Source: Eledone cirrhosa | Lineage: Eukaryota | Assembly: GCA_964016885.1 (NCBI GenBank) | Contig: OZ024748.1 | Coordinates: 39,804,001 to 39,868,000 of the forward strand | Direction of reading: 5' to 3' | Length of the DNA: 64,000 nucleotides | Part shown: piece after piece, positions 10,142 through 64,000 of the stretch | How positions within the stretch are numbered: the stretch's first letter is position 1 | Layout of the letters: every line of letters begins with the position of its first letter | Made by a program: the position numbers and the translations under genes | Notes under the pieces: generated by a model | The model's input: only the letters and a program-made list of their open reading frames with translations | The model's database searches: none | Told to the model about the DNA's origin: nothing

Positions 10142-10203
10142 ATATATATATAGACACACATACACACACACAGGTATATATATAGACACACAAACATCCA
10201 GTA
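9730..10203. repeat. CA/TA-rich compound micro/minisatellite
   Basis: Repeated CACATACATCCAGGTATATATA units plus (CA)n. Confidence 0.85.
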
Positions 10204-10286
10204 CTGCAAACAAGTGTTTACAGTAGAATCTTTGCAACTAAACAGATTGTTAGGAACACGTGTAATTACTGTCTGAATAAAGTGAC

Positions 10287-20100: not shown

Positions 20101-20533
20101 ATTCCAGTCCCCCACTAAAATTAAGGAGCGAGACGTTCCCAGAAAAGACTAGACGCTTAAAGAAGTCTGGCCGTGATTGCGATTTCCCGGTCGGGGCATA
20201 AACGGCCACCAGTCTGAAGGCTCCACCTCCGATACTGTTCACGTCTAGGACTACCAGTCTACCCTCCGGGTCCAAGTGTACTTGCTGTACTCCGACGTCC
20301 AGGTTCTTCCGAAACATAACAGCCACTCCACCTCCACCTCCTAGCTGACAGAGAGATGCGTAGATCTCAAAGTCGTCGAAGATGGGGGTTAGTTGTTGCC
20401 TGTTGTGGATCCTGGACTCGGTGATGGCTATCACATCCATACTGTGTGACCTAAGGTCGTTTAAAAGTTGGCCCTGTTTCCAGGGCATCCCTAGGCCACG
20501 CACATTCACGGTTCCAACTCGTAAACCAGCCAT
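17104..20533 (-). pseudogene. Tx1/L1 ORF2 (APE endonuclease-reverse transcriptase), disrupted
   Basis: Six consecutive minus-strand ORF pieces carrying the APE, RT and zinc motifs. Confidence 0.88.
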
Positions 20534-21167
20534 GTTGGTGAAGAAAAGTTGGAGAAAAAGGACGAAATGTGCACTTACCTTTTCGTTTCCTGGAGATCGG
20601 GTTGTTCAATCTCCATTTGGGTGCTGGATGGGGTGTTGGGTGGGGTGGGGGACACATTTTAACAGGACGCGGTTGATGGGTTTGTGGCAGGGGTTGCCCA
20701 CCTCCTGTGAAAATTTAATTTTTAGGTCTTTATAGGTTTCCATAGAAACCCTTATAAGTTTAAGGTGTGGAGACGATTCTGCCTTGACGAAAGTTTTGAC
20801 CTCCGTCTCCACCTTGGGGTTTGGGGAGATGACCTCCATCAAACTCTTGTTGTTTGTGTTGATGTATGCGTATTGTTGTTTGTGTTTTTGTTGTGTTGTT
20901 TTAGTTTGTTGTTCATCCGGGAGTTTTCTTTTTATGGTGGGTGCTTGTGTTTGGGGTGGTGTTGGTGCTGGTTTTGCTGATAGGGGGATGTTTGACTGTG
21001 GTGTTGTTTGTGTTGTTGTTTGTGTCTGTGGCTGTGTGTTGGTGTTGGTGATTGGAGTTTTTAGGGTTTTGTGGTGTCTCCTTTTTTGTTGTTTAGATTT
21101 CCGCGGTTCTCCCTCTTCTTCACTTAAAGAAGGAGAAGCAGCTTCATCCGTCGATGAATAATAATCG

Positions 21168-22472: not shown

Positions 22473-22706
22473 GTTATTTACTTTGTAAAATCTGATATTT
22501 TAAAACAAATTTTTAAAATAAAATTTTCGCCCCTGCAAGGGCGAAAAATGGGATTGCCTCCCAGCTGACAATTCAGGTTGGGGGTTAATCTACAAAATAA
22601 TGTTTTTTCAAACAATTAGTTCGGTTTTTTGCATAGAAATTAACAAAAAAGCTTACCGGCGATGTTCCACACGTCAGACAGAAAGAGAGATAGGTAGATA
22701 GATATG

Positions 22707-25700: not shown

Positions 25701-26290
25701 TGGGGGTTTTGTTTGTGATGTTTTTGTTGTTTGTGTTGGTGGTTGTATGTTTGTGGTAGTGTTTGCTGGTTTTTTGCTTTTGTGATGTCTTTTCTTTCTT
25801 TTCAAGCGATGGGGTTCTCCCTCGTCTTCACTGGGTGATGGCGAGATAGCCTCATCTGTTGTATCGTCTGTGTGATTGGAGAGGGGTATGTCTTGGGGAG
25901 CTGTTGTGTCTGTATGTGATTTTGCAGTGGTTTTAGGTGGAGTGGGGTTGGGTGGGACTGTGTTTGTTGTGGTTATTTTTGTGTGTTGGCGTTGTTGTTG
26001 TGGTGGTGGTGTTGGTGGTTGTGTTGTTTTGATGGGTGTCGGCAGAAGAGCCTTTTTTTTATTCATTAATTTAGGACAGGAAGCCCTCAGGTGACCCCTG
26101 CTAAAGCAATGGTAACATGAAGGCCACCTACCCTCAACCGAAAAGTTTATGTAAGTGAGTCCGTCCAGGAGTACACGTTGTGGGATCATAGCTATTCGCT
26201 CTGGGCTCATTTGCACCAGAACTTCAATGCTAGTCCCATTGAATACATCTCTGGGGGACTTGCCTACTGACAGTATTCTGTCACTACCAA
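22707..26290 (-). mobile_element. Second Tx1/L1 element, 5'-truncated and internally deleted (ORF1 tail fused to RT, APE missing)
   Basis: ORF 24534-26216 joins CYHCFSRGHLRASC and a P/T-rich linker to the post-APE part of ORF2; RT and C-terminus at 22944-24524; AATAAA tail at ~22712. Confidence 0.88.
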
Positions 26291-32167: not shown

Positions 32168-32502
32168 AAATTGCCTTTTCTATATCCTACACTGTTACGT
32201 AAACCCTCCCTTTTCTATCGCCTCTCTCTCTTTCTTTCTGCCTCAATACATACATACAGACAGACACACACACGCTATCTATCTAGGACATAATTATTCC
32301 ACGATCGACAAGTAACAGTACACAATAGCGCACTTATGACAGGCCAGAGATTTGCGTGGGAGGTGATCTACCATAAATAACATCAATTCTACGAAACATC
32401 TGCCAAACCAACAAGAAACAGCCATGGACTTCTCCGATCTGTAAGAAAATCTTCTTTTCAATATTTTTTTCGAAATTATATATATGTGTATATATATATA
32501 TG

Positions 32503-32595
<93 letters not shown>

Positions 32596-32662
32596 CGGCG
32601 ATGAATTAGTTTTGCGAGGTTTTTTATATGAAATCGTGTGTCGAAACAAATATTGTTATACT

Positions 32663-33428
32663 TGGGGAGGGTCATATTTGTGTAACATTGCCAGAATTAA
32701 TAACAGAACACACTCACTGTTTGGTTGGTTTTCGCTTCTCGCTGTCTTTTATATCGGTAATCTAAATTACTCGGTCCTCAATGTTGCCATTGACTGACCG
32801 ACGGTCAAAAATAATACAGATACAATATAGACACAAACACATATATATAGTTTATCATAAATCTTTCGTTGCACATCTGCAACATCGTTAGTGGTGTTAT
32901 ATTTTCCTCCTGTTGTGTTGTATGTCTACGCCATTTTTATTCAGTCTGTCTATATATTTATTTATTTATTTGCTTGTTTGTTTATTTTATTTCGTCTTCT
33001 TTGCGCATGCGTTTGCGTGTGTGTATAGTGTTATGTTTGCTGTGTGATGGGTGACTAGTGTGTGTTTATGTGCTTGTTGTTATTGTGCTTGTGTATGTAT
33101 TTATTTATTTATTTATCTTATTTTATTAACTTATTTATACTTCTCTTAGGTCAGTATTGTTTGTTTGGGTGTTGTTGTTATTCCATTCATTCTTTCTGTT
33201 TAGCTTTGGTCTTCTAATTTCTATTTCACTGGCCTCTCTGATTTGCCTATCTGCTGGGTCATTTCTATGTTTAGATATTATTCTAATTTCTATGTTGTCT
33301 ATGTTACCGTCATGTTGTTGTCTAGCATGTTCGTATAGTACTGAGTACTATACGAACATGCTAGACATCAACATGATGGTAACATAGACAACATATTCTG
33401 GCAATATTACACAAATATGACCCTCCCC

Positions 33429-33429
<1 letters not shown>
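32663..33429. mobile_element. Non-autonomous element with ~34 bp inverted termini and a long internal hairpin
   Basis: TGGGGAGGGTCATATTTGTGTAACATTGCCAGAAT ... ATTCTGGCAATATTACACAAATATGACCCTCCCCA; 51 bp stem at 33291-33395. Confidence 0.7.
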
Positions 33430-33475
<46 letters not shown>

Positions 33476-33505
33476 CGTGTATATATATATGTATATATGT
33501 ATATA

Positions 33506-33615
<110 letters not shown>

Positions 33616-33623
33616 CATACATA

Positions 33624-34311
33624 CGGGGGTTGGACAAAATAATGGAAACACCTAGCATCATAGAATCATAATTTGGAAATATCTATAAAACCGTCAAAAG
33701 CTTGTTTATTTTTATTGTTCTCGGGGTGGTCATTAATTTTGGTAGTAATTTTGGTAGTAATTTTGGTAGTAATTTTGGTAGTAATTTTGGTAGTAATTTT
33801 GGTAGTAATTTTGGTAGTAATTTTGGTAGTAATTTTGGTAGTAATTTTGGTAGTAATTTGGCAGTAATTTTGGGAGCTGTACTTTTGTGATCCTTTCTAA
33901 CAATTCGCGTAAGAGTCCGACGGTATCTATCTGAAAGTTTTGGTTTTCTTCCGGAGTTTTGTTTCGACGAGGAGATTTTTCCCTCTTTCTCAAAGACTGT
34001 CATTACTTTCGAGACAGTACTTCTTGATACACCAAACATTTCGGCTGTTTTCGTTACGCTAGCGCCTGCCATACGAGCACCAACAATTTGACCTCTTTGA
34101 AAGTCCGATAGATCTGTCATTTTAATGAATTTTAATTACCTTTTTCTGATGATATCTGGAGAGAAACAGCAATTTTAACAAATCATATTAAGCAACACTA
34201 ATAATAAATATAAAAAAACATAAAAATAAACAATCTTTTGACGGTTTTATAGATATTTCAAAATTATGATGCTATGATGCTAGGTGTTTCCATTATTTTG
34301 TCGAACCCCTG
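33624..34311 (-). mobile_element. Tc1-like DNA transposon, internally deleted, with a 12 bp minisatellite expansion
   Basis: ~90 bp TIRs (C.GGGGTT.GACAAAATAATGGAAACACC), TA flanks, paired-type HTH MTDLSDFQRGQIVGAR..GRKPKLS; (AATTTTGGTAGT)n at 33735-33870. Confidence 0.9.
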
Positions 34312-34354
34312 TATATATATATATATACATAATGTATAATATATATACATAATG

Positions 34355-34443
<89 letters not shown>

Positions 34444-34497
34444 ATATATATAGTGACGAAACATAAGTCAATTGCATGAACTCATAATCCTTTATTT

Positions 34498-34553
34498 ACT
34501 GCTATATATATTTCGATGATAGCCATTGAGTGGCTATGACCTCATCAGGCAGT
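34498..34553 (-). ncRNA. Minimal type I hammerhead ribozyme
   Basis: Reverse complement ACTGC-CTGATGA-GGTCATAGCCA(CTCAA)TGGCTATCATC-GAAA-TATATA-TA-GCAGT. Confidence 0.85.
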
Positions 34554-34621
34554 TAGTAAGTTCTTAGATATGCCAGCTCTGTGCTTATGGTGTTGATTGT
34601 ATCAGAGCCTTGGGGCATATC

Positions 34622-34677
<56 letters not shown>

Positions 34678-34730
34678 ATGTATAATATATATATATAATG
34701 TATAGCTATACACTGTATATATAATCATAC

Positions 34731-34822
<92 letters not shown>

Positions 34823-34839
34823 CATATTCCAGCATAGCT

Positions 34840-34951
34840 ACGTCCGTTAACGATCTTAGTTCAAATCCCGACGAGGTTGACTTTGCCTTTCATCCTTACT
34901 GGGTCGATAAAATAAAGAAGCAGTAATGTACTGGGTAATTGCTGGCCTTGT
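34840..34951 (+). mobile_element. SINE family A, partial
   Basis: Core match. Confidence 0.75.
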
Positions 34952-35267
34952 GCCAAAAAGATGAAACAATTATATATATATATAATATATAATATAGATA
35001 TGTATATATATAATGTAGTGTGTGTTAGTGTGTATATATGTATGTATATATATATACATGTGTGTGTGTGTAACAATTGTTCTCGGTATGGTGAACTAAC
35101 TGTTGTGTTAAAGGGTGAAAGCAGCGATTCTTTGCTTAAACTTTAATCTGTTATTTTAATAAATATTTCCTCTAGGGTTCTTATATATTTGATATATATT
35201 TATCCTTATCGAGCCCTCTTTGGATTTTAGTCTTCATATTTATTATTATTATTACTATATATATATA

Positions 35268-36091
35268 CTAGCTGAGGTTCCCGGTTATACCCGGGAGCGG
35301 GAGTATTCCCAGTTCCCATTAAAATGCCCAATGCCTCTCAGACTAAAAATGAAATACAAATATACGACAGATAATCAAAAGCGAAGACAAATTCATTTAC
35401 GAAACAATAATACAAACAAATATTGTTGATTACATTGGTCAGGTGAAAATATGTTCGTCAGAGAAGTTGAGTGTTGCTATAAATAAACAAATAGAACCCC
35501 ATTAGGGTGTCTCAATATTATTGACATTTGCTGAAATTTTGTGAATAAGTATCATATCTTGTCATTTACCTATGATTTAAATTTCATATAAATCGAAGGG
35601 AAAACATTTTCAGTGGGGGTTTTCAACGGGGTTTTGTGCCCCTAGGGACCCTTTGATTAAAATGAAATATACTTATCGAAGTACCCTGGGCAATGTAGTT
35701 TTAAAATATATATGGTTATGGGGGTCTATCTCCAAAAAGCATAGGAGGAGTTCGTGAAATCTTGTTCCATTTATTGGCCAAAATGTTCACTATAGGGGGT
35801 TTAACCCCCAATAGGGTGTCTTAATATTATTGAAATTTGCTGAATTTTTGTGAATAGGCATCATATCTTGTCATTTACCTATTGTTTAAATTTCTTATAA
35901 ATCGATGGGAAAAAATTAAGCGGGGGTTTTCAGCAGAGGTTTGAACACCCGGGGAACCCTTTGATTAAAATGAAATATACGTAAGAAATCAAATGGGCAT
36001 GAGGCCCCACACACGTGTCAAGCTACATCAAGATCCGTTTGTTAGTTTTTGAGTTTTAGGTTCACAAACAAACAAACAGACAGACATTGCC

Positions 36092-36098
<7 letters not shown>
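35268..36098 (-). mobile_element. Non-autonomous Helitron-like element
   Basis: Minus-strand 3' hairpin TCCCGG(GTATAA)CCGGGA followed by CTAG; 5' (TGTC/TGTT)n; internal tandem duplication; related fragment at 47610-47863. Confidence 0.7.
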
Positions 36099-36122
<24 letters not shown>

Positions 36123-36125
<3 letters not shown>

Positions 36126-37010
36126 CACCTTTCTAGTGGGTCCGGGTATGATTTTACATTCATTTAAATTATTGATGTATTGATTTATTGATATTTTTTA
36201 TCTGATTGTCCCGAATCTTCTATTATCGATTTTTTATCGTATCGTTGATTTTAGACTTGTTCTATGTGTGACGGTATTTTAACGATAGTTATAGCTCTGA
36301 TTCATCTGAATTATTGAGCCCTCTCCCGCTCATTTCGAATTTTGTTTATCGTGAACTCGTGCGCCGATTTTTCGATACTCGATCATTCTAATATTTTTAG
36401 CTCTGGACATAGCTATCCACCAGTTAATTTTATTGCTCATTTTTTGTCGATTCTATTGAGTGATGAATAGCTCCTGTTTTATTTTAACATGTCTATTGAG
36501 CACTTTTATTCGATATGTGTATTTCCACATTTCCTCGAATAGTTTTCGCGGATGTAGAGGTTATCTCCCTTGCCGGATTCCATGTGCGTATTTTGCTTGT
36601 AGTTAGCCTCTTATCCGCTAGGACGAAGCTCGTTGAAGAAGTAAACTTCCAGTCCGCTTGCTCTAGAAGTCTTATATATTTATATGTGAGCTGATAGAGT
36701 ACAGTCTAAGGATTTACAGAAACCCAAGAAGCTAGATTTTACACCTTTCTAGTGGGTCCGGGTATGATTTTACATTCATTTAAATTATTGATGTATTGAT
36801 TTATTGATATTTTTTATCTGATTGTCCCGAATCTTCTATTATCGATTTTTTATCGTATGGTTGATTTTAGACTTGTTCTATGTGTGACGGTATTTTAACG
36901 ATAGTTATAGCTCTGATTCATCTGAATTATTGAGCCCTCTGCCGCTCATTTCGAATTTTGTTTATCGTGAACTCGTGCGCCGATTTTTCGATACTCGATC
37001 ATTCTAATAT
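36123..37010. repeat. Element with ~270 bp direct repeats (616 bp period) inserted in (TA)n
   Basis: 36123-36394 is repeated at 36739-37010. Confidence 0.8.
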
Positions 37011-37020
37011 ATATATATAT

Positions 37021-38220
37021 ATACTATAAAGCTAACGGCCGTATGTATGTAACAAACTTTTCGCCAAACGGCTGGACCAAACAGCACCAAATTTGCACTA
37101 TAGATGTAACTTTTTCCAAGTAAAAAAGTGAGGGTATTTTTGTCTACTGAATTTTGTTAAAAGATTAAAGACATTACTTAAATATTCACTTCTTTAAAAT
37201 TTCAAATGTCAACACTTCCTGTTATACGACATTCCTCACTTTTTTTCGTCGCACAACATTCCCCTCTTTTTCTTAGTCTGTCTTTTTAGATAGATATAGG
37301 GCTATAACGTAGCGTCTTTATAATATGTCTCTGTATGTCTGGCTGTCTGTATTAGATAACGTTTTTCGAAATATTTACTTCTGGGTTCACAGATTGATTT
37401 TTTTTAGTTTCAGAAGTTAAGGGTGAAAGCCTTTGCTTAAACATTGTTATTTTAATATATATATTCGTGTACAGATATTTTGCATACACAAAAACAAAAA
37501 CCTATTTATTTCACTAAAGCACAGACGGCTTATCGTCATTGTTACTGTTCGAGGTTAGAGGCCCACAGTCTATCCAAGATCTGAGAACCATCAATAGCCA
37601 ACAATGTTCCACTTACCGTTTGGCTTGCCAGATGCGTGGTTTGTTACACGATGACACCTATTGGCACCTCACCCTGCAAGAAGCAGCAACTGCTAAAGTC
37701 CCTTCTCAGCTGCGAAAACCTTTTGCTATTATGCTGCACAACTGTGATCTCGCCACCCCGAAAGTCTAGCTGAGGACATCCTCCACCGCACACGCAGACA
37801 CAATCCGAGCGTAAGATACGATGTCTTTTTCAATGAGGCGCTCATCTGTCTTGAAAACAGTGTCCTGGAGATTGGTGGTAGGCTTCTAAGTCACTACAGC
37901 TTACCTGCTCCTGGCAGGAGTGTCCTGAGGTCAATGTCTACAGAGCTTCTCCGCGAGACGAGCTACGAGATCAGTGCTTCTCCAGTGGTCAATTGTATGT
38001 AGGATGCTCTAGGGTGAGCTCGCCAAACTATCTCTTCATCTTTGCTCCGGAGGGCCGAACAAAAAATATTGTATACTCTGAGGCTCTAACAATGTAATTT
38101 AAATATTTTCTGTTACTTGGAATTTTCATTTTGGTTGTACAAATTATTGTTTGTTAAAAAATGTGTTCTCTGTTCAGCCTTTATTGTTGTAACTCTCAAT
38201 TATCTTTAACGTACTGGCTG
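37021..38220 (+). mobile_element. Internally deleted Helitron (copy B)
   Basis: As for 2004-3200; ORF 37539-37769. Confidence 0.75.
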
Positions 38221-38824
38221 CTGAACTGGGGAATCCTAAACCTATTCAAACCCAACATCAGAGCACGTTAACCATTTTGGATAGTGAAAGAAAAAGAGAA
38301 AAATTTCAAATCTTTTATGAGGGATATGCAAATGAAGTAGAAGGGTAGACTGAAAATATCGTTATATTTAGACACCAGGTACATTTAAATAATTATTAGG
38401 ATACTTTATAAAAGAAGATGAAGCAGAAGAAGGAAGAAAGATAGGCTCATATTATTATTAGGGTGCAAGTAGATTTAAAAATTAAAAATGTGTTGAAGTG
38501 GTAGAATACTAAACCAAAAAGTGTTCAATATATAACCAAATCATGAGTTATAATATATATATAATGTATATAATTATATTTTAAGGAATTAAGGTTGTAG
38601 GTACACTTTAGCTTATTATATTGCAACCAGTCAATTTAGCTTATTATATTGAAACCAGTCAATTTAGCTTATTATATGGAAACCAGTCAATTTAGCTTAT
38701 TATATTGCAACCAGTCAATTATATACATATTTATATAAATAGATAAAAATATATACATGCTGTTATTAATTCAAATATAATTTAAGGGTTACGAAGGATA
38801 TGTGTTTACATTTTCAATATATAG

Positions 38825-38895
38825 TTAAGAAAAAAAAGTCCAAGATGGCACGGTTGGGGTGGGCAGGAAGGAGACGTCCATACCATAATGCCAAT
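38825..38895 (+). CDS. Predicted upstream exon of pseudoenzyme copy B
   Basis: Same splice sites and open frame as 3805-3875. Confidence 0.55.
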
Positions 38896-38994
38896 GTAAG
38901 ACAGTAGCTATTGTCATTTTATCGTGTCAGTTGATATTACGTTAAATATAATTCCGGTTTTATCTGTGATTTACTGATATAGCTTACGTCAATT

Positions 38995-39390
38995 GTTTCT
39001 TCTTCGTCCAGTTATTTCTGAGAGGGTCGTGGGGTCAGAGTCCTCCAACACTCCTTCCTGCAAGTCATGTCAGAAGCAACCGTTTCCAACTGATCCGGCT
39101 GGATCTCCCAAGCATGACCAGCCAAGCTCATGGATGTTAGCAAACCATCTTACTCAGGGTGGGTCGATCCCTGGGTTTCTTGTCGGTTTGTTTTGCCCGT
39201 AAAATCTGTCCGGTGATTCTTTCCTGAGACATTCTAACCACATGTCCATAGTATCAGAGCTGTGATCTCTCAATTCGGAGAAGTAGCGGCTCTACCTGGA
39301 GTAACTCTCTGATCTCAGAACTACGCACCCTATCGAGTAACATTACTCCAAAGACCCTTCAGAGGAATCCCATTTCGGCCGCTTGTATTG
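38995..39390 (-). mobile_element. RTE-type LINE fragment (intronic, copy B)
   Basis: Duplicate of 3975-4370. Confidence 0.65.
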
Positions 39391-39453
39391 TTTCTATTTA
39401 CGAAATAACACAACTGAGGATTTTAATAGTGTCAAATTTTCGTTTCCTTTCAG

Positions 39454-40951
39454 TTCCGACTTTATCGAACCATTTAAAATACATATTGTAGAGAACATAA
39501 AGATCAATAACCGTAACGACAGATTAATTGCTCTCGAGAAAGCTGACTACAACATTTTTAAATTACAACCTGAAGATGTCATGATCGATTTCCTTACAGA
39601 TGCTGGCACTAATGCTTTCAGTCTTGAACAAAACGCAAGAATATGGATGGGTGATGAAAGTTATGCCGGATCTACTAGTTATGAAACTTTGAAAGACGCG
39701 GCAACATATATTTCTGGTTTTGAAAACATTCTGCCAGTTTTTTCTGAATGTATCAGCGAAGAGATTGTCGCTTCTTATTTCACAAAAGCTGGAGATAAGG
39801 TTATTGGGAATACTTTTACTTATTCACTTGAGAAGCATATAAAGGATCTTCATGCTGAAGCGATTTCTTTGTTAGATTGGTCAGATAATAATTTTGCAGG
39901 AAATCTAGATGTTCAAGCACTCAAAAACTTATTGGCAGAAAATGATAAAAAATCAATTTCCTTTCTTATAATGAATGTACCAGCAAAAAGTAGTGGTGGC
40001 CAACCAGTTAGTATGTCAAACATGAAAGCAGTTTCTGATCTCTGTCGCGAACATTCGATTCCGATATACATCGAAAGTAGTATGTATGGTGAGAACTGTT
40101 GGCTCAATAAAATGTACGAAGAGGCTTACTTCAATAAATCGTTAGTTGAGATATCGCAAGAAATGTTTTCTTTTTTCGATGGCTGCATTATTTCTGCTAA
40201 AAGAGATGGTAGAAGTGAGATTGGAAGTGTCATTTGTCTTCAAGACAAAGAAATGACTCGAAAATTGGGCACTGTTATTACTCTTAAAGCAGGTTTCATA
40301 ACTTATGGTGGGATGGCTGGCCGAGATATGGAAATGGTAGCGGTTGGCATGCGAGGTGCTTTGGATGAACAACTGCAAGACTATCGACAAAAACAATTGG
40401 CATTTTTCAAAAGATCCCTGAAGGAATTTGGTGTTCCGATTGTGGAGCCAGTCGGTTGTAATACCATATTCATTGATGCCGAAAATGCTTTTCCTAACTG
40501 TAAACACGCGTTTTATCCAGCCTGGTCTTTATCTTGTGCTGTTTATATCGTCGGGGGTATCCGATGCGCAGAGTTTGGTCAAGTTACTCGTCCAACAAGC
40601 AGCTTACCCACTAATCATTTTCTGAAAGACCGAGAATTACTAAAGCTTGAGATACCTCGTTTCATCTATACGACTTGTCACATTTTCTATGTTGCCTATG
40701 TTTTCGCTCAGCTTATTTCACATGAAATGCTTTCTGGAATGAAACTTATTGCCTGCTCCGAAGACCAAATAAAACTCGTGAAAATAAAAATGAAACCAAA
40801 TCATTCTCTGGAATATGACGATATCCAACTCCTTCCGGTACAAGACTGTGAACACATTCACTTCTTTAAAAACATATCTAATCAAAGAGTTATGAAAAGA
40901 AATTCAATCGCCGAGGCATCTTCTATATGGTCAGTCGACATTCCTTCTTAA
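39454..40951 (+). CDS. Tryptophanase/tyrosine phenol-lyase-like protein lacking the PLP lysine, main exon, copy B
   Basis: 7 aa differences from copy A; SAKRD (AGA at 40202-40204); acceptor CAG at 39451-39453. Confidence 0.9.
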
Positions 40952-41479
40952 AAAGGGGACAAACACGTTAGATAATGTAATCGTAGACACAAAAAAGACG
41001 TGGTAGTCATGATTGGAACGTCCCTGATCATAGAATTGCTCTGTCAATGTTCACCTGAACTTAAACAACAGCAACAACAACACAGAGATTTTTTTTGTTG
41101 CACCCAAACAGGATTCTGTAAATTCTAGATTGTACATTCTTTTATTCTTTTACTGGTTTCAGTCATTAGACTGTGGCCATGCTGGGGCACTGTTCTTTTA
41201 CTGGTTTCAGTCATTAGACTGTGGCCATGCTGGAGCAGTGGTCTTTTACTGGATTCAGTGATTCTACTGTGGCCATGCTAGGGCACCAATTGATTGTTAG
41301 TTTGTTTTTTTTAATTGGTTTTATTCCCAACAATTAAACTATTGAACATGATTTTGAATAGAAAGTAGGGGAAAACATTGACAGTCTTGTCAAATATAGT
41401 TTTAATATTATGTTAACAAAAAAAGGAAATAAAATATCTTTGGAAACTTAAATATATTTCTTGTGATGTTCTTTTACAA

Positions 41480-41725
41480 TTATTTCACCAATATATAATT
41501 AATATCAAACATTGTGATGTATGTTTCACCAATATATAATTAATAACAAACATTGTGATGTATGTTACACCAATATATAATTAATATCAAACATTGTGAT
41601 GTATGTTACACCAATATATAATTAATATCAAACATTGTGATGTATGTTTCACCAATATATAATTAATATGAAACATTGTGATGTATGTTTCACCAATATA
41701 TAATTAATATGAAACATTGTGATGT
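41480..41725. repeat. 41 bp minisatellite (copy B)
   Basis: Same unit as 6460-6748. Confidence 0.9.
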
Positions 41726-42629
41726 GGTTGTGATAATTCGGGGAAAGATGGTACAACGAATATTAGATAAACTAAGGTGAAAAGATACAACAAATCAGCA
41801 TTTTAAACTTTCGTCTTATATTTCTTGATATTTTGAGGTGAGAAACTTTTTTCAAAAGAAAGAAATGGAGTCTGGTGTTGTCAACGCCCAAAGAAATGTT
41901 GATAAACGATTTATTTACATCAACTTATTATTGATGGTGACATGCTTTTGTTTCACTTTAAAAAAATATTATAATAAGGTGACATACTAATATAAATATT
42001 ATTTTAAAAATAAAAAACAAATCTTGAAACATCTTATGACTGTGGCAGTGGCAAGGTTTATAGAGTTAAGAAGCCTCACAACCATCTGATTTCTGGTTCC
42101 TTTAGACTACATGGCATCTTAAAGAAGTGTCTTTCTGCCATAGGTTCGAGTCAACAAAACGGACAGTTTGCCCTTTTCGGCTTGGCGGGCAGCAGGGCCT
42201 GGACTGGTGGTGGAATGCACCAGGTTGGCACTTGCAATTAATTGTAATATAACTGATAGATGTTGTTTCAATTCTCTGCCATTAATTGTAGATCAACGAC
42301 AACATTGTTGCAGTAGTTATTTCAATTATGTGCCATTAATAATCTGTGTTACGAACACTACATAAATAGTCTACAGGTGTTACCTTGATTTCACCAGATG
42401 GAAATATCAAAATCAAAATTGATTATGTAATTGTTCCAAACAATATTCTCGAAATGGTGAAAAACTGCCATGTGTATATTTCTACAGATATTGGTCTAGA
42501 ATATTTCAACTTAGAGACTGGAAAACACAAACGTTATTATCATAAATGTACTGTGATTGTGTGAGGCTTAATTATTAAAGATTGTAAAATCCATTCCCTG
42601 TGAATTATATCCAAGAATTTTCTTTTTCT

Positions 42630-43420
42630 TCCTTCACTTATTCCTGAGAAGGTCGTGGGGGAAGAGTCTTGAAACACTCCTTCTAGCAGGTCCTGTCAGA
42701 AGCAACCATCTCGAACTGATTTGGCTGGATCCCCAAGCGATACCTGCCAAGCTTATGGATGTTATCCAACTATCTTGCTCAGGGTCTACTCCTGGGTCTC
42801 CTGCTGGTTGGTTTTGCCAATAAAATCTGTCCAGTATTTCCTTGGACATTCTAGCCATATAATATGTAATATCAGAGCTATGATTTCTCAATTCGGAGAA
42901 GTATCAGTTCTACCAGGAGTGATTCACAAGTCTCCAAGCTACACACACTATCGAGTAATGATACTCCAAATACCCTTTTGGAGGAACCCCATTTTGGCCA
43001 CTTGTATTTGCGATTGTATTCTTTCAGTCATTACACAAGATTCATGACCATAGGTAAGGGTTGGCACGAAAATCGAATTGAAGATAGTGAGTTTGGTGTT
43101 TACACCTACCTCCCTTCTTCTGATTACCAAATGCCAAAGCTGTCACATTACTGCAGCAGCTCCTGCAATTATTGCACTTAATTCGGCCTCCTGCCTTCCA
43201 TCACTCGTGACCATGGCCCTGAGATACTTGAACTTCTCTACCAACTTCAGTAGAACTCCTTTCGCATGTAGAATGCACTGCGCAGGCTTCCTTTAGAAGA
43301 CGAGTGTCTCAGTTTTCACAGCACTGAATTTCATTCCAGCCATGCAGCACTCTGCATCAAACCTATCAAGTGCAAGTCAGAGATCACCTTTTGTTGAGTT
43401 TGTAACACCATGTTGTCTGC
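42630..43420 (-). mobile_element. RTE-type LINE fragment (longer version)
   Basis: Extends past the copy A breakpoint toward the RT core (FADNM.L). Confidence 0.75.
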
Positions 43421-43513
43421 AAATTCCAGCCACAAATTGCTGGCCATGTGCCTAAATTAGAAAACCTTATTCCTGCAAAAGGTCCTGTTAATCCTTAATT
43501 ATTATTAAATATA

Positions 43514-43920
43514 ACATATATACAAACTGGAGCTGTGTCAGGGACCAGTCCGCAAACATATATACAAACTGGAGCTGTGTCAGGGACCAGCCTGCAAACA
43601 TATATACAAACTGGAGCTGTGTCAGGGACCAGTCCACAAACATATATACAAACTGGAGCTGTGTCAGGGACCAGTCCGCAAACATATATACAAACTGGAG
43701 CTGTGTCAGGGACCAGTCCGCAAACATATATACAAACTGGAGCTGTGTCAGGGACCAGCCTGCAAACATATATACAAACTGGAGCTGTGTCAGGGACCAG
43801 TCCGCAAACATATATACAAACTGGAGCTGTGTCAGGGACCAGTCCGCAAACATATATACAAACTGGAGCTGTGTAAGGGACCAGTCCGCAAAAATATATA
43901 CAAACTGGAGCTGTGTCAGT
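43514..43920. repeat. 42 bp minisatellite (~9.5 units)
   Basis: AAACATATATACAAACTGGAGCTGTGTCAGGGACCAGTCCGC units. Confidence 0.92.
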
Positions 43921-44268
43921 GACAATGTCTGCAAACAATGAGTTGAACATTTTAACACCAAGAAATATATGATAAATAAAAACTACAGTTAACAGATTTT
44001 TGTGTTTTGAATTACTAAAGTGACTCGTGTACAATGTAATTGGTATATATATATATATATATATATACTCACTCTATATGTATGTGTTTTTATATAAATA
44101 TGTAAATATTTGTGTATATATATATATAGTTGTTATATAGTAAGGTGTATTATTGGTTGTGTCATACGGTCCAATAAACTTTTGTTAGCAATATTAAGTT
44201 CTCCACGCTTTTGTATATCTCCAATTCCATTTAAGGGAACAGCTAGATGATGTAAAACGGAGTATTTG

Positions 44269-45867
44269 TATCAAAATAAAGATCCGAAAGCATGGTATAA
44301 ATTTCCAATCATTTTAATCACAACACGTTTCAATAAGGGATAGATCGATCGTGTGGTCATGATCGATTATCACTGATTTCATCATTCTTAACTGAGCGTG
44401 TAATACGTCTATTTACTAACTGAGAGAACTCTATGGTTAGGGTATTCTAAACCTTCCTCAGGATTTTTGGAAAGTAACCTACCACTAACTCCCCCCTTTT
44501 TACCTTAGCCATAGAGTTCTCTCAATTAGCAAAATATAGACAATCACATACTCAGGTAGTAGACAGCTAAGATCGTTTGCGCACTTACACACTGTACTCG
44601 GTATGTTTCCACAGAGTTCTCACAGTTGAGTGCATATTTACCATTACTTTAGAATACCTAGTTAGTAAATAGTTAGAACAATTACACTCGCAGTTAAGAC
44701 CGATTACGCGCATTCACCATTACTTTAGAATACCCTAACCATAGAGTTCTCTCAGTTAGTAAATAGACGTATTACACACTCAGTTAAGAACGTTACGCTC
44801 TTTATACATAATTCTACACAGTACCCGGTTTCTTTAGACACAGAGTTGCCACAGTTATGACCAGTCATGATCTTGTCGATTGAATACTACACTAGGTTTT
44901 GGTCTGTGATCCTCTAACCAAGGAGTGCTCACAGTTTGCTGAATGGACAATACTACTTACACGCCATCAATGGACTTACACACATCCCCGGGGTTTTGTT
45001 ATTTTATTTTGTGTTGGGTAACACACCTCCACCACTCAAACACTTATCTTAAAGGCCCGAGGGCCCATTTGACGGGAAAACGCACACACTGACACCTTAA
45101 CTCAAATACCCAACCCTACATGGAGCCCCTTGTTGGCCTACATGGCAGGTGCTTGCACGCACAGACTCGGGGACCCAGATTCTCAACGGGACAACGGCAC
45201 ATATAGAGTTCGATACGAGCTGACTACTTGCTCTACACATGGATGTGTATATACCAAAACATACACTATTTAGACGATACAGATGTTACAATTCAATCGA
45301 TACACGTATAGCAGAACGTTGAAGGGAATTTACTTGCGTGTGTATAGTGTTGTGGTTGACCCAATTTTTTTCTAATTTACATCGTGAAAATTGAGATTTG
45401 ACCAATATAACGTTTGTTGTTTTGTAACCTAACTTTTGGTGCATACTGTGTTGCTGTGTATATTTTTTTTTCTCTGACCTCGCGTCGGTGTGTGTGAGTG
45501 TGTGTGCACTCAATAACACTAATTGTGACGGACCAAAATTCTACAGATCTGGTGTGGAGATTAGACCTGTCCAGCGTCTTTTACAGCTATTGAGAGATAG
45601 AGACTTCATAGATTTATGACCCTGACTGAAGACAATAGCAGTTGTCGTGTTTTGGCTGCTGATTATTCATATGGGGAACAAAACTCCAGTGAGTGAACAT
45701 CGTTAGTTTTTCCTCCCTCATATCAAAGATTTGAAGACATTTCATTATTCACCTGATGAGATCAGTGATAATCGATCATGACCACACGATCGATCCCTTA
45801 TTGAAAAATGTCTCGTGATTAAAATGATTGGAAATGTATACCATGCCTTCGGATCTTTATTTTGATA
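44269..45867. mobile_element. Non-coding element with ~115 bp inverted termini containing a hammerhead-like motif (Penelope-like relic)
   Basis: 44269-44384 is the reverse complement of 45754-45867; TCAC-CTGATGA...GAAA...TC-GTGA at 45749-45818. Confidence 0.7.
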
Positions 45868-45914
45868 TATATATATAAAACTGAATTTACATTTTTTTTT
45901 CCAGTCTCCAAGCA

Positions 45915-47294
45915 ATGGAACCTTACAGGATTAAGGTATTTTATCCAGTCAATTTAATCCCCAAGTCTGACCGTATTGCATGTCTAAAAGCTGCCAACTA
46001 CAACCCCTTTCTACTTAAATCGAAAGACATATTTATAGATTTGCTAACAGATTCTGGTACAGGAAGTCAAAGCAGTGCCCAGTGGTCGGCTATGACTAAA
46101 GCCGGCTATTCAACTATTAATTCCGAATACGTTAAGGAATTTGTACGTACAATTCAACACATTACCAATTTCAAACATGTATTTCCAGTTCATCAAGGTC
46201 GAGGAGCCGAAGGTTTGTTGGCAAAACTCCTACTGAATAAAGAGAGTGTTGTACTGAGTAATTCTCTCTTTGACACAACACGAGCACACGTTGAGTCATC
46301 TGGTGCAATTGGAATAGATTTGGCAACAAAGTCTTCAAAATTCTTAGGTGATGCCGATGTGGAAAAATTTGAAGAAACACTGGATGAATATGGTTCTAGA
46401 GTTCATCTTGTAATAATAACCTGCACCAATAATGTGGTAGCCGGAGCTCCTGTGAGCATGCAAAATATAGAAATCATAACAAAATTATGTCGAAACAAGA
46501 ATATCCCAGTTATAATGGACGCATGCCGTTTTGTTGAAAATGCTTATTTTATCAAGACCTTAGACGAAAAATATTCTAAACACACAATCTTAGATATTGC
46601 CAGCGAAATGTTTTCTTATTTTGATGGTGCAACTATGTCTTTAAAGAAAGATGGTATGAGCAATGAAGGTGGGTTTATAGCTTTCAACAACGACAAATGG
46701 GCCACCAAAATATTTGACATAATCGAATATAAAAGTGGTTATTCAACTTACGGGGGAATAACTGGATCAAATCTTGTAGCATGTACTGTCGGAATTTCTG
46801 AGGCTATGAACGAAAATTACCTCCGATCAAGAATCTATCAGGCTAAATTACTGGCTGATTTCTTGGAAGATAATAATATTCCCGTATTTAAACCAGTAGG
46901 GGCCCATGCCGTCTACGTGAAAGCAAACAAAGTCTTGCCACACCTTGATTTCTTGAAGTATCCAGCATGGTCCCTTAATTGTGCCGTATATATCGAAGGT
47001 GGTATTCGATGTGCAGAAATTGGCAATATAATGTTTGGTGAAAATTCAGATGGAACAAAACAAATTCATCCCTTTGAATATGTGCGTTTGGCTTTACCCA
47101 GAAGAACCTATACGGTCAACCATCTGCATTTTGTGGCCAAAACTTTTGGTTTTGTTGCCAAAAAAGCCCATTTAATCCACGGAATGGAAATTGTCAAATC
47201 TTCGCATCTCCTAAGACATTTCACAATTTGGATGAGACCATTAAATGAATACCACCTTGAAAAGAATAATAATCAGAAAAAAATAAACTGTTGA
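45915..47294 (+). CDS. tnaA: Tryptophanase (tryptophan indole-lyase)-like PLP enzyme, 459 aa
   Basis: MEPYRIK, IDLLTDSGT, HQGRGAE, FDTTRAH, TNN, DACRFVENAYFIK, MSLKKD (PLP Lys at 46647-46649), GIRCAEIG, VRLALPRRTY, LRHFT. Asp in FDTT, Ile in EIG and His in LRHF are tryptophanase-type rather than TPL-type. The GDEAY motif is lost. Confidence 0.9.
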   Translation: MEPYRIKVFYPVNLIPKSDRIACLKAANYNPFLLKSKDIFIDLLTDSGTGSQSSAQWSAMTKAGYSTINSEYVKEFVRTIQHITNFKHVFPVHQGRGAEGLLAKLLLNKESVVLSNSLFDTTRAHVESSGAIGIDLATKSSKFLGDADVEKFEETLDEYGSRVHLVIITCTNNVVAGAPVSMQNIEIITKLCRNKNIPVIMDACRFVENAYFIKTLDEKYSKHTILDIASEMFSYFDGATMSLKKDGMSNEGGFIAFNNDKWATKIFDIIEYKSGYSTYGGITGSNLVACTVGISEAMNENYLRSRIYQAKLLADFLEDNNIPVFKPVGAHAVYVKANKVLPHLDFLKYPAWSLNCAVYIEGGIRCAEIGNIMFGENSDGTKQIHPFEYVRLALPRRTYTVNHLHFVAKTFGFVAKKAHLIHGMEIVKSSHLLRHFTIWMRPLNEYHLEKNNNQKKINC

Positions 47295-47609
47295 AGTTTG
47301 CCATAAATTACAATGTCAGTTATCTCTTGTGTACAGAAGAAGTTCATTAGAAGTATATATCACACTGGCCAAATTACCCACACCTTGCTGCGTTTCACAC
47401 TTTTTTTTTTTTAAAGAAAATGATGAATGATTTTAAATCAGCGATATAATTTATGGAGAAAAACTCTGCATTTCAATATTACTCAATGTAAAATGTAATG
47501 CATGAAAAATTGGAAAACATTATTTTTTGTTATATATCAAATCAAAATTACATCATTAAATCTGATTCTTATTTTGTTTCTTGTAAATAATTTTTTTCAA
47601 AATATCAAT

Positions 47610-47997: not shown

Positions 47998-48188
47998 TGT
48001 GGTGGATTGGCAGTATTAGGAGAGGGTCTGATGCCATGCTTTGACGTATAGAGTTACGGCCCTTGCCATTCTGAGTTCAAATCCCGCCGAGGTTAACTTT
48101 GCCTTTCATCCTTACGGGGTCGATAAAATAAAGTACCAGTAATGCACTGGATATTTGCTGACCGTGTGCCTAACTTAGAAACAATTAT
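47998..48188 (+). mobile_element. SINE family A
   Basis: Full head and core. Confidence 0.85.
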
Positions 48189-49693: not shown

Positions 49694-50459
49694 TATATAT
49701 GGATAATAGGATAAATTTGGTACAACCAATAAATTATAAAGGCAACAAATATTTTCTTGTTTTAATATTGCAGTTTATACATATCTTAAGAAGCAGTATA
49801 AGAAAAGCTTACATTTCATTTTCAAACTTAAGTAAAAAATAAAATATATATTTATTTTCAATTTTTAAAATGCGAGCAAAAACATAAAATCGATTTGAAT
49901 ATTCATCACACATACATATATATACATGTATATTATTTCGAAAAAAAAGGGGGTGGGGTAAAGTTTTATACAAAAAAATGATGACCAGTTCGAATATTTG
50001 AGAGAAAACTCAAGTATATTCGAACTGCTCAGATATTAAAAAAATTTCTTTTATTAATATTCAATATTTAACATCTAATATTTGATAAAATTGTTTTACC
50101 AATCGAAACCAGTTATATTTAATGCAACAATTATAAAATTATTCATTCTGTCAGATTAAAGAAAAAATAATCTTTTAATATTCCCTGGACATTGGCAATT
50201 TCAACCCCCTACCAACAGTACTGCTGGTTCACTCTGGGTCACAGCGTCTGAGACAAGTCAGAGCGTAGTGTCCAAATAATTATTTTAAATTATTCTATGA
50301 AAAATAAAAATTAATTACACGTATCTAAATATCACAATTTGTTTTGTTGGATGATCTACCAACTTTGCCATCAACCAGTCATTTCTATCAAATAATTTCC
50401 AATAATATTTGTGAATATGAAAAGGTAAAGAAAGATCGATATATGTGCGTGTATATATA

Positions 50460-52025
50460 ACGTCTGAATAGCTCAGGCTGTCATACCTGACAGTCCTCAG
50501 TGAAATATGTATAACGTCTGAAGAGCTCAGGCTGTCATAACTGATAGTCCTCAGTGAAATATGTATAACGTCTGAAGAGCTCAGGCTGTCATAACTGATA
50601 GTCCTCAGAGAAATGTGTATAACGTCTGAATAGCTCAGGCTGTCATACCTGACAGTCCTCAGAGAAATGTGTATAACGTCTGAAGAGCTCAGGCTGTCAT
50701 AACTGATAGTCCTCAGTGAAATGTGTATAACGTCTGAAGAGCTCAGGCTGTCATACCTGATAGTCCTCAGTGAAATATGTATAACGTCTGAAGAGCTCAG
50801 GCTGTCATACCTGATAGTCCTCAGAGAAATGTGTATAACGTCTGAAGAGCTCAGGCTGTCATACCTGACAGTCCTCAGTGAAATGTGTATAACGTCTGAA
50901 GAGCTCAGGCTGTCATACCTGACAGTCCTCAGTGAAATGTGTATAACGTCTGAAGAGCTCAGGCTGTCATACCTGATAGTCCTCAGAGAAATGTGTATAA
51001 CGTCTGAAGAGCTCAGGCTGTCATAACTGATAGTCCTCAGTGAAATATGTATAACGTCTGAAGAGCTCAGGCTGTCATACCTGATAGTCCTCAGAGAAAT
51101 GTGTATAACGTCTGAAGAGCTCAGGCTGTCATAACTGATAGTCCTCAGTGAAATATGTATAACGTCTGAAGAGCTCAGGCTGTCATAACTGATAGTCCTC
51201 AGTGAAATATGTATAGCGTCTGAAGAGCTCAGGCTGTCATACCTGATAGTCCTCAGAGAAATGTGTATAACGTCTGAAGAGCTCAGGCTGTCATAACTGA
51301 TAGTCCTCAGTGAAATATGTATAACGTCTGAAGAGCTCAGGCTGTCATAACTGATAGTCCTCAGTGAAATATGTATAACGTCTGAAGAGCTCAGGCTGTC
51401 ATAACTGATAGTCCTCAGTGAAATATGTATAACGTCTGAAGAGCTCAGGCTGTCATAACTGATAGTCCTCAGTGAAATATGTATAGCGTCTGAAGAGCTC
51501 AGGCTGTCATACCTGACAGTCCTCAGTGAAATATGTATAACGTCTGAAGAGCTCAGGCTGTCATAACTGATAGTCCTCAGAGAAATGTGTATAACGTCTG
51601 AAGAGCTCAGGCTGTCATAACTGATAGTCCTCAGTGAAATATGTATAACGTCTGAAGAGCTCAGGCTGTCATAACTGATAGTCCTCAGTGAAATATGTAT
51701 AACGTCTGAAGAGCTCAGGCTGTCATAACTGATAGTCCTCGGTGAAATGTGTATAACGTCTGAAGAGCTCAGGCTGTCATAACTGATAGTCCTCAGAGAA
51801 ATATGGATAACTTCTGAAGAGCTCAGGCTGTCATAACTGATAGTCCTCAGTGAAATATATATAACGTCTGAAGAGCTCAGGCTGTCATAACTGATAGTCC
51901 TCAGTGAAATGTGTATAACGTCTGAAGAGCTCAGGCTGTCATAACTGATAGTCCTCAGTGAAATATGTATAACGTCTGAAGAGCTCAGGCTGTCATAACT
52001 GATAGTCCTCGGTGAAATGTGCATA
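50460..52025 (+). ncRNA. Tandem array of 29 x 54 bp units, each a minimal hammerhead ribozyme motif
   Basis: Unit ACGT-CTGAAGA-GCTCAGGCTGTCA(TAAC)TGATAGTCCTCAGT-GAAA-TATGTA-TA; the self-complementary ACGT forms stem I with the next unit. Confidence 0.8.
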
Positions 52026-60616: not shown

Positions 60617-63600
60617 TCAAGGATCAATTTCCCCCTCGTCCTTCTGCATATGAAAGTCTGCTGTCCAGGTTGGTGGTTTGCGACTTCTTTGCGATCTCCG
60701 CAGTGTTGGGGCGGCACTTTGGGTTTCCTCTTCCTCGGAGTCCGTTGACACAGTGATTCTACGGACATCCAGGACATGACGTGGTACTCCGTCCAAGGAC
60801 ACATTGTTCTGGGAATTTATGGCCGTCACCGTTCCCCTTCCCCATTGAGATGTGCAACGTGCATATGGGGGCTTAACCCAGACTTCTTCGCCCACCTGCA
60901 CGAATGCACTCTCTCTCCCCACTGGCCGTTGTGATGGCGTGCACGGGTGCCGCCACTCGTATCTGAATACTGCTCTGTGTGGCACCGATTCCTCGACCTG
61001 TCTCACCCGAGGGGACATGTTGTACCAGAACACTGCCTCCATTGATGAGATATGACCCCGCTCCACCATTGCCTTGATCGTCCGGTGGTGTCGCTCTACA
61101 ATTCCATTCCCGCTCGGCCTGTGCGCTGCTCTGAAGAAACGGTCCACCTTCCATCCATCGAGCATCTCCCTCAGCGCCTCCGAGCGCAACGCTGCGCTGT
61201 TGTCCATCAGCAGTTCGTCCACAGGGCCCCGCTCCAAGAACACCTCTCTCAACGTCCGCATGATTTCCTCGGCCGTTCCAGTCTTCATCTCCCTCCATAT
61301 CGCCATCCGTCCTGATCCACAGTCGACCATCGAGAGGTACGTTCCCTGTCGATAGTGTGTTACATCCACCGCCAATCGCTTCCAGTCGCGATCCACCGAG
61401 AGGCTTCCCGTTTCGTGCACACCCGGGGCGGGATCAATGGACTGACATCGGACGCAGCCTCTAACCACCCTTTGAACACTGTGTCTGTTAACGTCCGAGT
61501 CGATTCTCCTGGCTAGGAACAGGCTCCTATCCACTCCCATGTGGTGCATGTCATGCAACCCTTTCAGATCCGACTCGGTCAGCCGACACACGGCAGCTAT
61601 CTCATCATCTACCTCCTCCGGTGCTTCCATCCAGGCTTTATTCACCCTAGTTAAGACGTCCGCCCTATTTTTCTCTGAGAGCACGAAAACTACACTCAGC
61701 TTCGGGTCGAACTCGGTGGCCAGCTCTCCTAAAGTTCCCAGGCGGCGCTTTATCAGCATCTCCGCCGCCCCTCTCGTTCGCACTCTCTTCTCACTGGTGA
61801 GCACTGATCTCACCCATCCGAGTACAGTAGCCGAGTCGGTGCGTATCTCGATGGATGCGCATTCCCCACCTCAGGGCGAGGTTCACCCCTCTCAACACTG
61901 CGTCCAGTTCGGCTACATTGATGTGGTTGCAGTCGTCCTTCTTCCTAAGCCAGGCTGCATCCTCGACCTCAACACCTCCTATCTCCAACGTGACACCCAG
62001 CGCTATGCTGCTGGCATCGCACCATACGGTCCCGCTCTGTGATTTGGGAACATACCACCCTCCCCACGAACTCCTGCATCGTGACCATCTCTTGACATAG
62101 CTGCATGCCGTCCGGAGCCACCCAGCAATCGGGTAGTCACCCACCAACTTTCCACACACCGAGAAAAGCTCCCGCCTACTCATACTTGGGCCCAGTTCTG
62201 GAACTTCATTTCCCCTCTGGAATACCAAGACGCCCGTCCTGGCTCGCCGTAGCCTAAGTCCCAGCACGGCTCCTCCCTCCAACGCTTCTGACGGTTTCGC
62301 AGCCAGTCCATACCCCTGTAAATGGCTCCTGACCTCCGCCGCCGACACCACAAACTCGTCCACTAGGATGTCGTCATGTAGGAGTTAGTGGCCCTCTTCA
62401 TCTTGTCGGCCTTTCCCAGAATGGCCTTGAGGACCACCGCCATGATCTTCGGTGCGGAGCTCAGCCCGAAACCGAGCCTGGTCAGGCAATGTGTCCGGCC
62501 CTTATACCTGACCAACTGATACTGCCAGAGCTTCTCATCTATATGCAATTGCAAGTATGCCGACTTTAGATCTACGATTGCGTCTCCACTCACGCAGGGT
62601 TTCCCCCACAGAAATCCGTGACCTCGCCACTCGTGTGGCATGACACGTGCTCGTTCAGTTCCCGAAGGTCCAGCACCGGCCTCACCTTGTTCTTCGTGGG
62701 TTGCGCCACCGCCATTAACGGCAATACTCCGCACTTCACCTCCTCTTTCCAGGGAAGCAGTATGCCCTCCTCAATCCATCTCTCTACCTCTCGCTCGAAC
62801 TCGCCCCTAATGTTTCCCTTCAATGTGTGTTGATAGCAGCCCACTTTGGTCTTCAGTGTTGGTGGTTCTCTCTTCCAGTACCACTCAACAACCCATCGCT
62901 GCCTATCGAACACGGCCTTGAAGTCTTTGTCCTGCACAGTGTAAGCGGGGTATTTCTCCTCGTGGGCCTTCTGGTTCTCCTGTCGCGTACTCACAGCGCA
63001 TACCGATGCAGCGGCACCAAACGACACACCGACGTTGTTCACTGTGACGCCTCCTAGACGGCAAATTGCGTCCATGCCCATAACCACGCCGATCCCATCC
63101 ACCACGCTGTCTACTACGATGGCAGAAAGCCTTATTTTCCTTCCCCGTACCGCTATTTCCATCTCGCTGCGATCTCGGCATTCAATTTTCGTGCCATCGA
63201 CTGCCCTTACGCTGCTCTTCCCTCTTCACCTCTGCGCCACCCCCGCGATCACCAGTGTCGTCGTACAACCCGTGTCCACGAGGGCTCGCTGTGGCTTTCC
63301 CCTCACGAAGACACCCACCACGGAGAGCGCCTCTACTCGTAACGGGCAACTACCGGCGCAGTAGTTCCTCTTGGATCGTTTCCCTGGTCGCAGTTAGTAG
63401 CGATGTGGCCTGGTCGCTTACACCGGTAGCATATTATTTCCGGCCTTGACTCTCTGCAGTCTCTAGCCATGTGCGGGCCCTGGCACCGAAAACAGCGACC
63501 TCTAAACGTTCGCGGGCGACCGCGTGCCGTGGTTGCCTACCTTTCACCATTTCGCTGCCAGCTGTCTTGAGCCTCTGTAGTTGCTATCGCCGCGACACTC

Positions 63601-64000
63601 TTCTTGGCATCTTCTGCTATGATCCGGGCTATTTCCACCAGTGAACGCATTTCCATTTCTTTGTAACCCGGGACTTGCTGCAGTTTCACCGCTATCTCGT
63701 CTGGAATTCCATTTATGAACGCCAACCGCACCGTGCGTTCGCATTCCACCTGATATCCAGCCAACATGGCCAATCGCCGTATTTCCGCTGCGAAAAGGTC
63801 AACGCGTTCACCGTTCCATCTAATTCTTGCCAGGTTAGCGAAAGCGGCTAACGGTCCCTCTGCGAACGCTTCCATCATGCGCCTCTCAATCTTTTGCGCA
63901 TCTCTTTGGCTGTGTTCGTCCAACTCAAGGAAGAGTACCAACGCGTCCCACTCGACGTACAGTGCCATGAGGCCAGCCACATCTTCTATCTTCTGCAAGC
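60617..64000 (-). mobile_element. Gypsy/Ty3 LTR retrotransposon internal region (gag-PR-RT-RH-IN), frameshifted, runs off the window
   Basis: gag with CCHC knuckles, ALVDTG protease, RPVLDLRELN/DLKSAYLQ/RLGFGLSSAP RT, CDASS..HINVAEL RNase H, HHMG..C..C/DVTH/MDN/GNGIVER integrase; PPT-like GAGGGGGAAA at the end. Confidence 0.92.

Follow-up and report, generated by a model that had tools for sequence, protein, structure and literature searches.

Introduction

Tryptophan indole-lyase (TIL) draws on two chains for its active site. Within the catalytic dimer, the general acid, Tyr72*, is supplied by the partner chain (PMC11301627), and the phosphate-contacting tyrosine of the E. coli enzyme, Y307, likewise comes from the partner (PMC2770544); activity is reportedly rescued in hybrid dimers of the E. 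coli variants Y74F and H463F (Phillips 2002). Animal TIL is already known: an Octopus protein carries the name in RefSeq, and cephalopod TILs have a dedicated paper. Yuasa, in 2023, is said to have found the cephalopod TIL subunits each inactive alone and, when co-expressed, assembled into a weakly active heterotetramer. Of three other papers, one lists octopus, coral and anemone tnaA with an origin called unresolved (PMC8537960), one reports that the transcriptome of a muricid snail contains a match to tryptophanase (PMC4962025), and one cites a metazoan TIL paper (PMC13342648).

Here we describe a locus of Eledone cirrhosa contained in a 64,000-nt stretch of contig OZ024748.1 (hereafter the window, to whose positions all unprefixed coordinates refer). 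The open reading frame at 45915-47294 is a real host-encoded gene, and it encodes the alpha subunit of octopod TIL rather than a stand-alone single-exon enzyme; as such, it is a further example of an already described system. In our main reading, to which we assign a probability of roughly 0.85, the alpha subunit probably functions only when combined with a linked beta subunit in a heteromer, and both are predicted to arise from one first exon by alternative splicing to different terminal exons.

Results

A host-encoded member of the TIL family

Inspection of the open reading frames gives an uninterrupted frame of 459 aa at 45915-47294. It matches the Pfam family Beta_elim_lyase (PF01212; E 5e-53, 180.7 bits against a cut-off of 27) and the NCBIfam tryptophanase model PRK13238 (493 bits against 285), and scores below cut-off for the canonical TnaA equivalogs (348 against 826 for TIGR02617, and 390 against 750 for NF053783). 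An AlphaFold model of alpha (pLDDT 86.8) searched with Foldseek belongs to the fold shared by TIL and tyrosine phenol-lyase (TPL), with TM-scores of 0.87-0.91 to the top TPL/TIL chains and an E of about 1e-49. The tryptophanase-type residues named in the initial annotation of this DNA (FDTT Asp, EIG Ile and LRHF His) are all found in the alignment. The residues separating TIL from TPL are likewise present, namely Asp133 (D129), His458 (H444) and an Ile (I378) at the position of TPL Arg381, with position labels that were assigned by motif.

The gene sits in host surroundings. Its GC content (37.3%, against 37.9% for the window) agrees with the host-like low GC remarked on earlier, and the window is part of a 60.6-Mb contig in a 3.0-Gb genome. 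The closest named proteins, from Octopus and Argonauta, are alpha-type orthologues with 80-84% identity and a clade support of 100/100; identity to the Octopus orthologues is 82-84% for alpha and 75-76% for beta. The earlier statement that animal SINEs and LINEs lie on both sides holds in part: LINE reverse transcriptase/endonuclease frames lie upstream and an integrase frame downstream, and a dispersed 25-nt motif has nine matches in the window on both sides of the gene (including 48089-48113 on the forward strand, and others at 32065 and 34873), against none expected by chance, but the label SINE is one that we infer for this repeat. The window also contains, at 17104-26210 and 60617-63968, two stacked LINE elements (reverse transcriptase, endonuclease, zf-RVT) and an element resembling an LTR retrotransposon that carries an integrase domain. 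A helix-turn-helix transposase-like remnant lies at 33683-34120, inside the first intron.

One first exon, probably shared by two terminal exons

All parts of the gene lie on the forward strand. The 3' part of the first exon occupies 32412-32440, with its ATG at 32424, and encodes MDFSD plus 2 nt of Leu6 before a GTAAG donor at 32441; the coding stretch at 32424-32440 is the only MDFSD exon within the window. A GT-AG intron of 13,464 nt in phase 2 (32441-45904), seen both in a junction contig and in the sequence, encloses the entire beta exon and leads to the alpha terminal exon at 45905-47294. Its polypyrimidine-AG acceptor (AG at 45903-45904) stands 10 nt 5' of the ATG at 45915, which is an internal Met, so that the protein has 468 aa with exon 1 and the claim of a coding region without introns falls. 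The evidence for this junction is one 1,537-nt contig from one run (X4) of one study, a run judged RNA-like by the splice junction alone, which joins 32440 to 45905 and reaches 47412, giving the 3' UTR a minimum extent of 47295-47412.

The beta terminal exon lies at 39454-40951 behind an acceptor AG at 39452-39453 and would yield 504 aa with exon 1. Beta and alpha are 30% identical, and their acceptors have identical position and phase. The motif AATAAA at 41428-41433 is a candidate poly(A) signal for the beta transcript. In both O. bimaculoides and O. sinensis, the alpha and beta proteins all start with MDFSDL, and the two are entered in RefSeq as isoforms, alpha as X2 and beta as X1 (XP_014791033/32), each with this start; further cephalopod TIL entries are XP_029647098 and XP_036366181. 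Judged by accession order, beta and alpha also lie next to each other in Argonauta and O. vulgaris. At its loose 5' end, the X4 contig has 29 nt of exon 1 (32412-32440), which together with the T common to both acceptors makes 30, the length to be expected of a graph that branches into a second (beta) junction if the contigs were built on 31-mers. The in-frame acceptor, the RefSeq isoforms and this overhang length suggest that exon 1 is likely spliced to beta as well.

Other gene structures were considered and set aside. A private first exon for alpha was not found in the interval between beta and alpha, and a natural beta-alpha fusion is not present here, as beta has a terminal stop and the alpha transcript skips beta. 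The beta protein P0356 has an N-terminus unlike the MDF/MNF start of alpha-type proteins, and the shared first exon may thus be limited to octopods.

Reciprocal losses in the active site

The two subunits have complementary sets of active-site residues. Alpha keeps the PLP-binding Lys254 along with D211, R214, N182, R400, D129 and H444, and so has the canonical TnaA set of PLP Lys, Asp223, Arg226, Asn194 and Arg414. A canonical TnaA also carries the trans Tyr72* and Glu70* in the same chain; in alpha, the catalytic Tyr (P. vulgaris Y72*) has become Thr76 and the Glu of GDExY has become Tyr74. Alpha also lacks the AGRDME loop, part of the set donated to the neighbouring subunit. The linked beta (39454-40951) shows the mirror-image losses: it keeps GDESY (E74, Y76) and TYGGMAGRDME (Y290), while its PLP Lys is replaced by Arg256 and the equivalents of D223, R226, N194 and R414 are lost.

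The same division is found in an alignment of 8 alphas, 5 betas and 7 unsplit homologues, whose rows include near-copies and whose residue labels come from motif matches to a bacterial homologue. Lys266, Asp223, Arg226, Asn194, Arg414, Asp133 and His458 are kept in all eight alphas, none of which has Tyr72*. All five betas keep Tyr72*, Glu70* and Tyr301* and have lost Lys266 (Arg in every one), Asp223, Arg226, Asn194, Asp133 and Arg414. We take the position numbers of Glu70, Arg226 and Tyr301 to be those of the bacterial enzyme. The unsplit homologues share 138 invariant columns, of which alpha alone retains 37, beta alone 26, both 60 and neither 15. Alpha holds the PLP Lys and the cis residues and beta the trans Tyr, which makes it likely that the two form a heteromer in which each alpha/beta dimer has a single active site. 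The suggestion that the gene gives the animal its own indole does not carry over to alpha by itself, which should not make indole because, without the trans catalytic Tyr, it needs the beta subunit.

Young tandem copies of the unit

All matches in this genome lie on one contig (C8) between 39.12 and 40.13 Mb. The array contains at least 9 alpha exons, at least 10 full beta exons, at least 2 inverted beta fragments and at least 9 exon-1 matches, 6 of them forward, and in 9/9 alpha copies a beta lies 5.4-6.5 kb upstream. Pairwise differences among the nine beta-alpha units amount to 0.36-1.3% over 8-11 kb, and the units vary in spacer lengths and lesions. Three of the nine alphas are broken (two frameshifts, one nonsense), two of the ten betas are altered (one frameshift, one lost stop), and exon 1, beta and alpha are all intact in four units, that of the window included. 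Three of the alpha exons show no difference across 1,390 nt. Within the window, 1989-8291 (forward) is a segmental duplicate (about 98.4% by self-BLAST) of 37007-43259, a part of the tandem array, and an orphan beta copy with an intact frame lies at 4434-5931 (forward), which no alpha follows and upstream of which no exon 1 was found. About ten young tandem copies, 0.4-1.3% apart, are a possible addition to the known system.

With two stop-codon entries dropped and broken copies included, pN/pS among the copies is 1.1 (16:4) for alpha and 0.46 (23:13, p = 0.037) for beta. Positive selection on the amplified alphas was considered and rejected, the value of 1.1, which includes broken copies, being indistinguishable from neutral.

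As for which copy is expressed, the DNA-like runs X1-X3 carry the window's majority alpha type at a depth of 69-81, while the spliced X4 contig derives not from the window copy but from u1, an outlying copy at C8:39.134 Mb: all 13 differences between the contig and the window are the genomic letters of u1, which also excludes A-to-I editing as their source. In that one X4 sample, which consists of assembled contigs, a form that drops minor variants, u1 is the dominant transcript. The window copy, though intact, is probably a minor or silent extra one.

Several smaller observations concern the array and its counterparts elsewhere. Downstream of two units lies an inverted exon 1 with a 5' beta fragment and a much shorter intron, of about 1.7 kb (G000:C8:39591882-39594574, L025; 39656293-39659059, L028), and a further inverted exon 1 lies at G000:C8:39975908-39976008 (L038); these pieces are possibly antisense or rearrangement relics. 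Minisatellite arrays with 27-, 42- and 54-nt units occur inside and between units (window 9726-15703, 43513-43937 and 50315-52024), and changes in their length may account for spacer differences between copies. In Argonauta hians, adjacent locus tags (P0005, P0121, P0247) have at least two alpha copies, about 98% identical, on either side of a beta, a layout suggestive of tandem amplification that took place separately; P0121 itself is an alpha-beta chimera and probably a gene-model artefact. P0004 and P0243 represent an alpha-type paralog whose active-site motifs near the C-terminus are changed (PNR for PRR, RHL for RHF), which suggests that some cephalopods have a third subunit that has diverged further.

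A parallel division in bacterial two-domain proteins

The search matches include, with the Argonauta model excluded, 20 two-domain family proteins of 800-960 aa, about 14 of them distinct. Their N-halves have Tyr72* and Tyr301* in every case, with Lys266 in 5/20 and Asn194 in 1/20; their C-halves have Lys266, Asp223, Arg226 and Arg414 in every case, with Tyr72* in 4/20 and Tyr301* in 1/20. P0407 is an exception to this pattern, and the split is only partial in P0361, P0362 and P0366. Most of the bacterial C-halves have TPL-type residues, and in a quick tree both halves fall outside the TIL clade, from which it follows that the split is convergent; a common origin with the cephalopod split was rejected on the tree placement. 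The 15 best literature matches listed for a fused or heterodimeric TPL held nothing relevant, which is weak evidence of absence. Reciprocal active-site loss was seen in the prokaryotic tandem proteins P0126, P0134, P0357-P0363, P0366, P0367, P0376 and P0393.

A probably old animal TIL

Alpha and beta group with other animal TILs both in a 342-row FastTree and in mixture-model trees of 41, 40 and 43 rows. In the 43-row tree, 18 rows, a group defined after earlier trees had been inspected, form one clade (100/98) nested inside prokaryote-like TILs; the group comprises coral, the nematomorph Gordionus, Haliotis, bivalves, chiton and octopods, and 7 further rows. A 154-row FastTree does not place the coral with the molluscs. 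Monophyly of alpha plus beta is weak (81/76 in the 43-row tree, with the chiton separating the two in the 41-row tree), and a single alpha-beta clade is not rejected (p-AU 0.33). Haliotis has several divergent tryptophanase-like paralogs (the P0377 and P0409 clusters).

Since coral, nematomorph and mollusc TILs fall in one clade, any transfer must be ancient. The pattern of a recent lineage-specific transfer, with bacterial nearest relatives and no orthologues in related animal classes, is not what we see, and the entry of TIL long predates cephalopods. No fungal or protist TILs were identified among the sequences sampled for the trees, so TIL may have reached animals either by transfer or by inheritance from an earlier eukaryote. 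On these trees, animal TIL is probably old and mostly vertically inherited, with any transfer predating the coral, nematomorph and mollusc lineages, and a bacterial source is plausible. The initial annotation had proposed an old horizontal transfer followed by duplication, and had named a vertically inherited metazoan clade as the outcome that would speak against it. The nesting among bacterial-type TILs and the later duplication fit that proposal, but any transfer lies before the split of those lineages, and a clade of coral, nematomorph, abalone, bivalve, chiton and cephalopod homologues is largely what the phylogeny gives.

Discussion

Proposed mechanism and alternatives

In the arrangement that we propose, the catalytic dimer would consist of one alpha and one beta, with PLP on alpha and Tyr76 of beta protonating the indole leaving group; each dimer would have one working site and an alpha2beta2 tetramer two. 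At the composite site Trp would be split slowly into indole, pyruvate and ammonia, and a common promoter would keep both halves co-expressed. An ancient bacterial-type animal TIL, inherited through the molluscs, would have been duplicated in cephalopods, each copy then losing the half of the site that its partner could supply, and the unit would recently have been amplified about tenfold in this genome.

The main functional alternative is that alpha is a homomeric PLP beta-lyase whose substrates carry good leaving groups (Cys, from which H2S would form; Ser; S-alkyl-Cys), and that beta is a regulator or scaffold. Alpha does retain the complete PLP and carboxylate apparatus, and the TIL variants H458A and D133A, defective on Trp, retain activity on S-ethyl-Cys (PMC11301627). 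We nevertheless consider this unlikely: E. coli Y74F has negligible activity and binds PLP more weakly (PMC2770544), and the indole-specific D129 and H444 are conserved in all eight alphas while beta conserves exactly the trans Tyr and Glu, a combination that makes sense only for a composite Trp site. The origin of the pair could also be imagined differently, as a cephalopod-specific transfer of a bacterial tryptophanase, or of a fused gene of beta-alpha type, that established a new indole pathway. The animal clade does nest among prokaryote-like TILs, nearly all of the coding sequence is in one exon, and the bacterial fusions show the identical split in the identical order; yet both subunits fall together with the TILs of chiton, bivalve, abalone, nematomorph and coral (100/98), and the fusion halves lie outside the TIL clade with mostly TPL-type residues, which makes such a transfer very improbable.

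Two further doubts concern the assembly rather than the enzyme. That the tenfold array is largely an assembly artefact, in a genome with one or two units, draws some force from the three identical alpha exons, but we hold it to be improbable given the sequence differences among the nine units, their distinct spacer lengths and lesions, and the finding of the majority (window) alpha type in the DNA-like runs and of the u1 type in the spliced contig. Bacterial contamination, brought to mind by a family of bacterial type and one long exon, is practically negligible as an explanation: the GT-AG intron joining the gene to a host exon rules it out, and the chromosome-scale contig with host transposons around the gene and the octopod orthologues further support the initial annotation on this point.

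With the alpha/beta heteromer as our reading, the locus would be a natural case in which reciprocal loss has turned a homomeric enzyme into an obligate heteromer whose two halves are apparently under one promoter. A wider reading, to which we give even odds, is that the cis/trans site of TIL/TPL was split twice independently, once into cephalopod subunits of one alternatively spliced gene and once in an undescribed bacterial family of tandem-fused, one-site TPL-like proteins, with whole-gene amplification here and separately in Argonauta possibly raising the indole output of a slow enzyme. With the cephalopod split and its independent bacterial counterpart side by side, constructive neutral evolution of shared active sites would become open to comparative tests. 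Unless a higher copy number proves to increase indole production, the tenfold array is a curiosity at the level of the species.

Comparison with known systems

Bacterial TnaA (P. vulgaris 1AX4, E. coli, B. thetaiotaomicron 8SBG) and TPL share with the octopod alpha the fold (TM-score 0.87-0.91 for the top chains) and the PLP Lys motif, and the TIL-type Asp, Ile and His of TnaA are likewise present in alpha. The bacterial enzymes are homotetramers with cis and trans residues in every chain, whereas the octopod sets are divided over two chains. The remaining animal TILs (Liolophura, Sinanodonta, Potamilus, Haliotis, Gordionus, Oculina; see also Yuasa 2023, CBP-B 263:110801) form one clade with both octopod subunits; the three that were checked, from chiton, bivalve and coral, have Tyr72* and Lys266 in one chain, unlike the octopod subunits. 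The prokaryotic tandem TPL-like proteins (P0126 and P0357-P0363, entries from metagenome-assembled genomes and metagenomes named tryptophanase or tyrosine phenol-lyase) resemble the octopod pair in the split itself, with the trans tyrosines in the N-half and the PLP lysine in the C-half; unlike octopod TIL, they are one fused chain, have mostly TPL-type specificity residues and have an independent origin in the tree. The cephalopod TILs represented by the Octopus RefSeq entries match the Eledone genes in the reciprocal losses and in the MDFSDL first exon; relative to the cephalopod TILs of Yuasa 2023 (J Mol Evol 91:912, PMID 38007709), the difference here is the presence of about ten tandem units, several of them broken.
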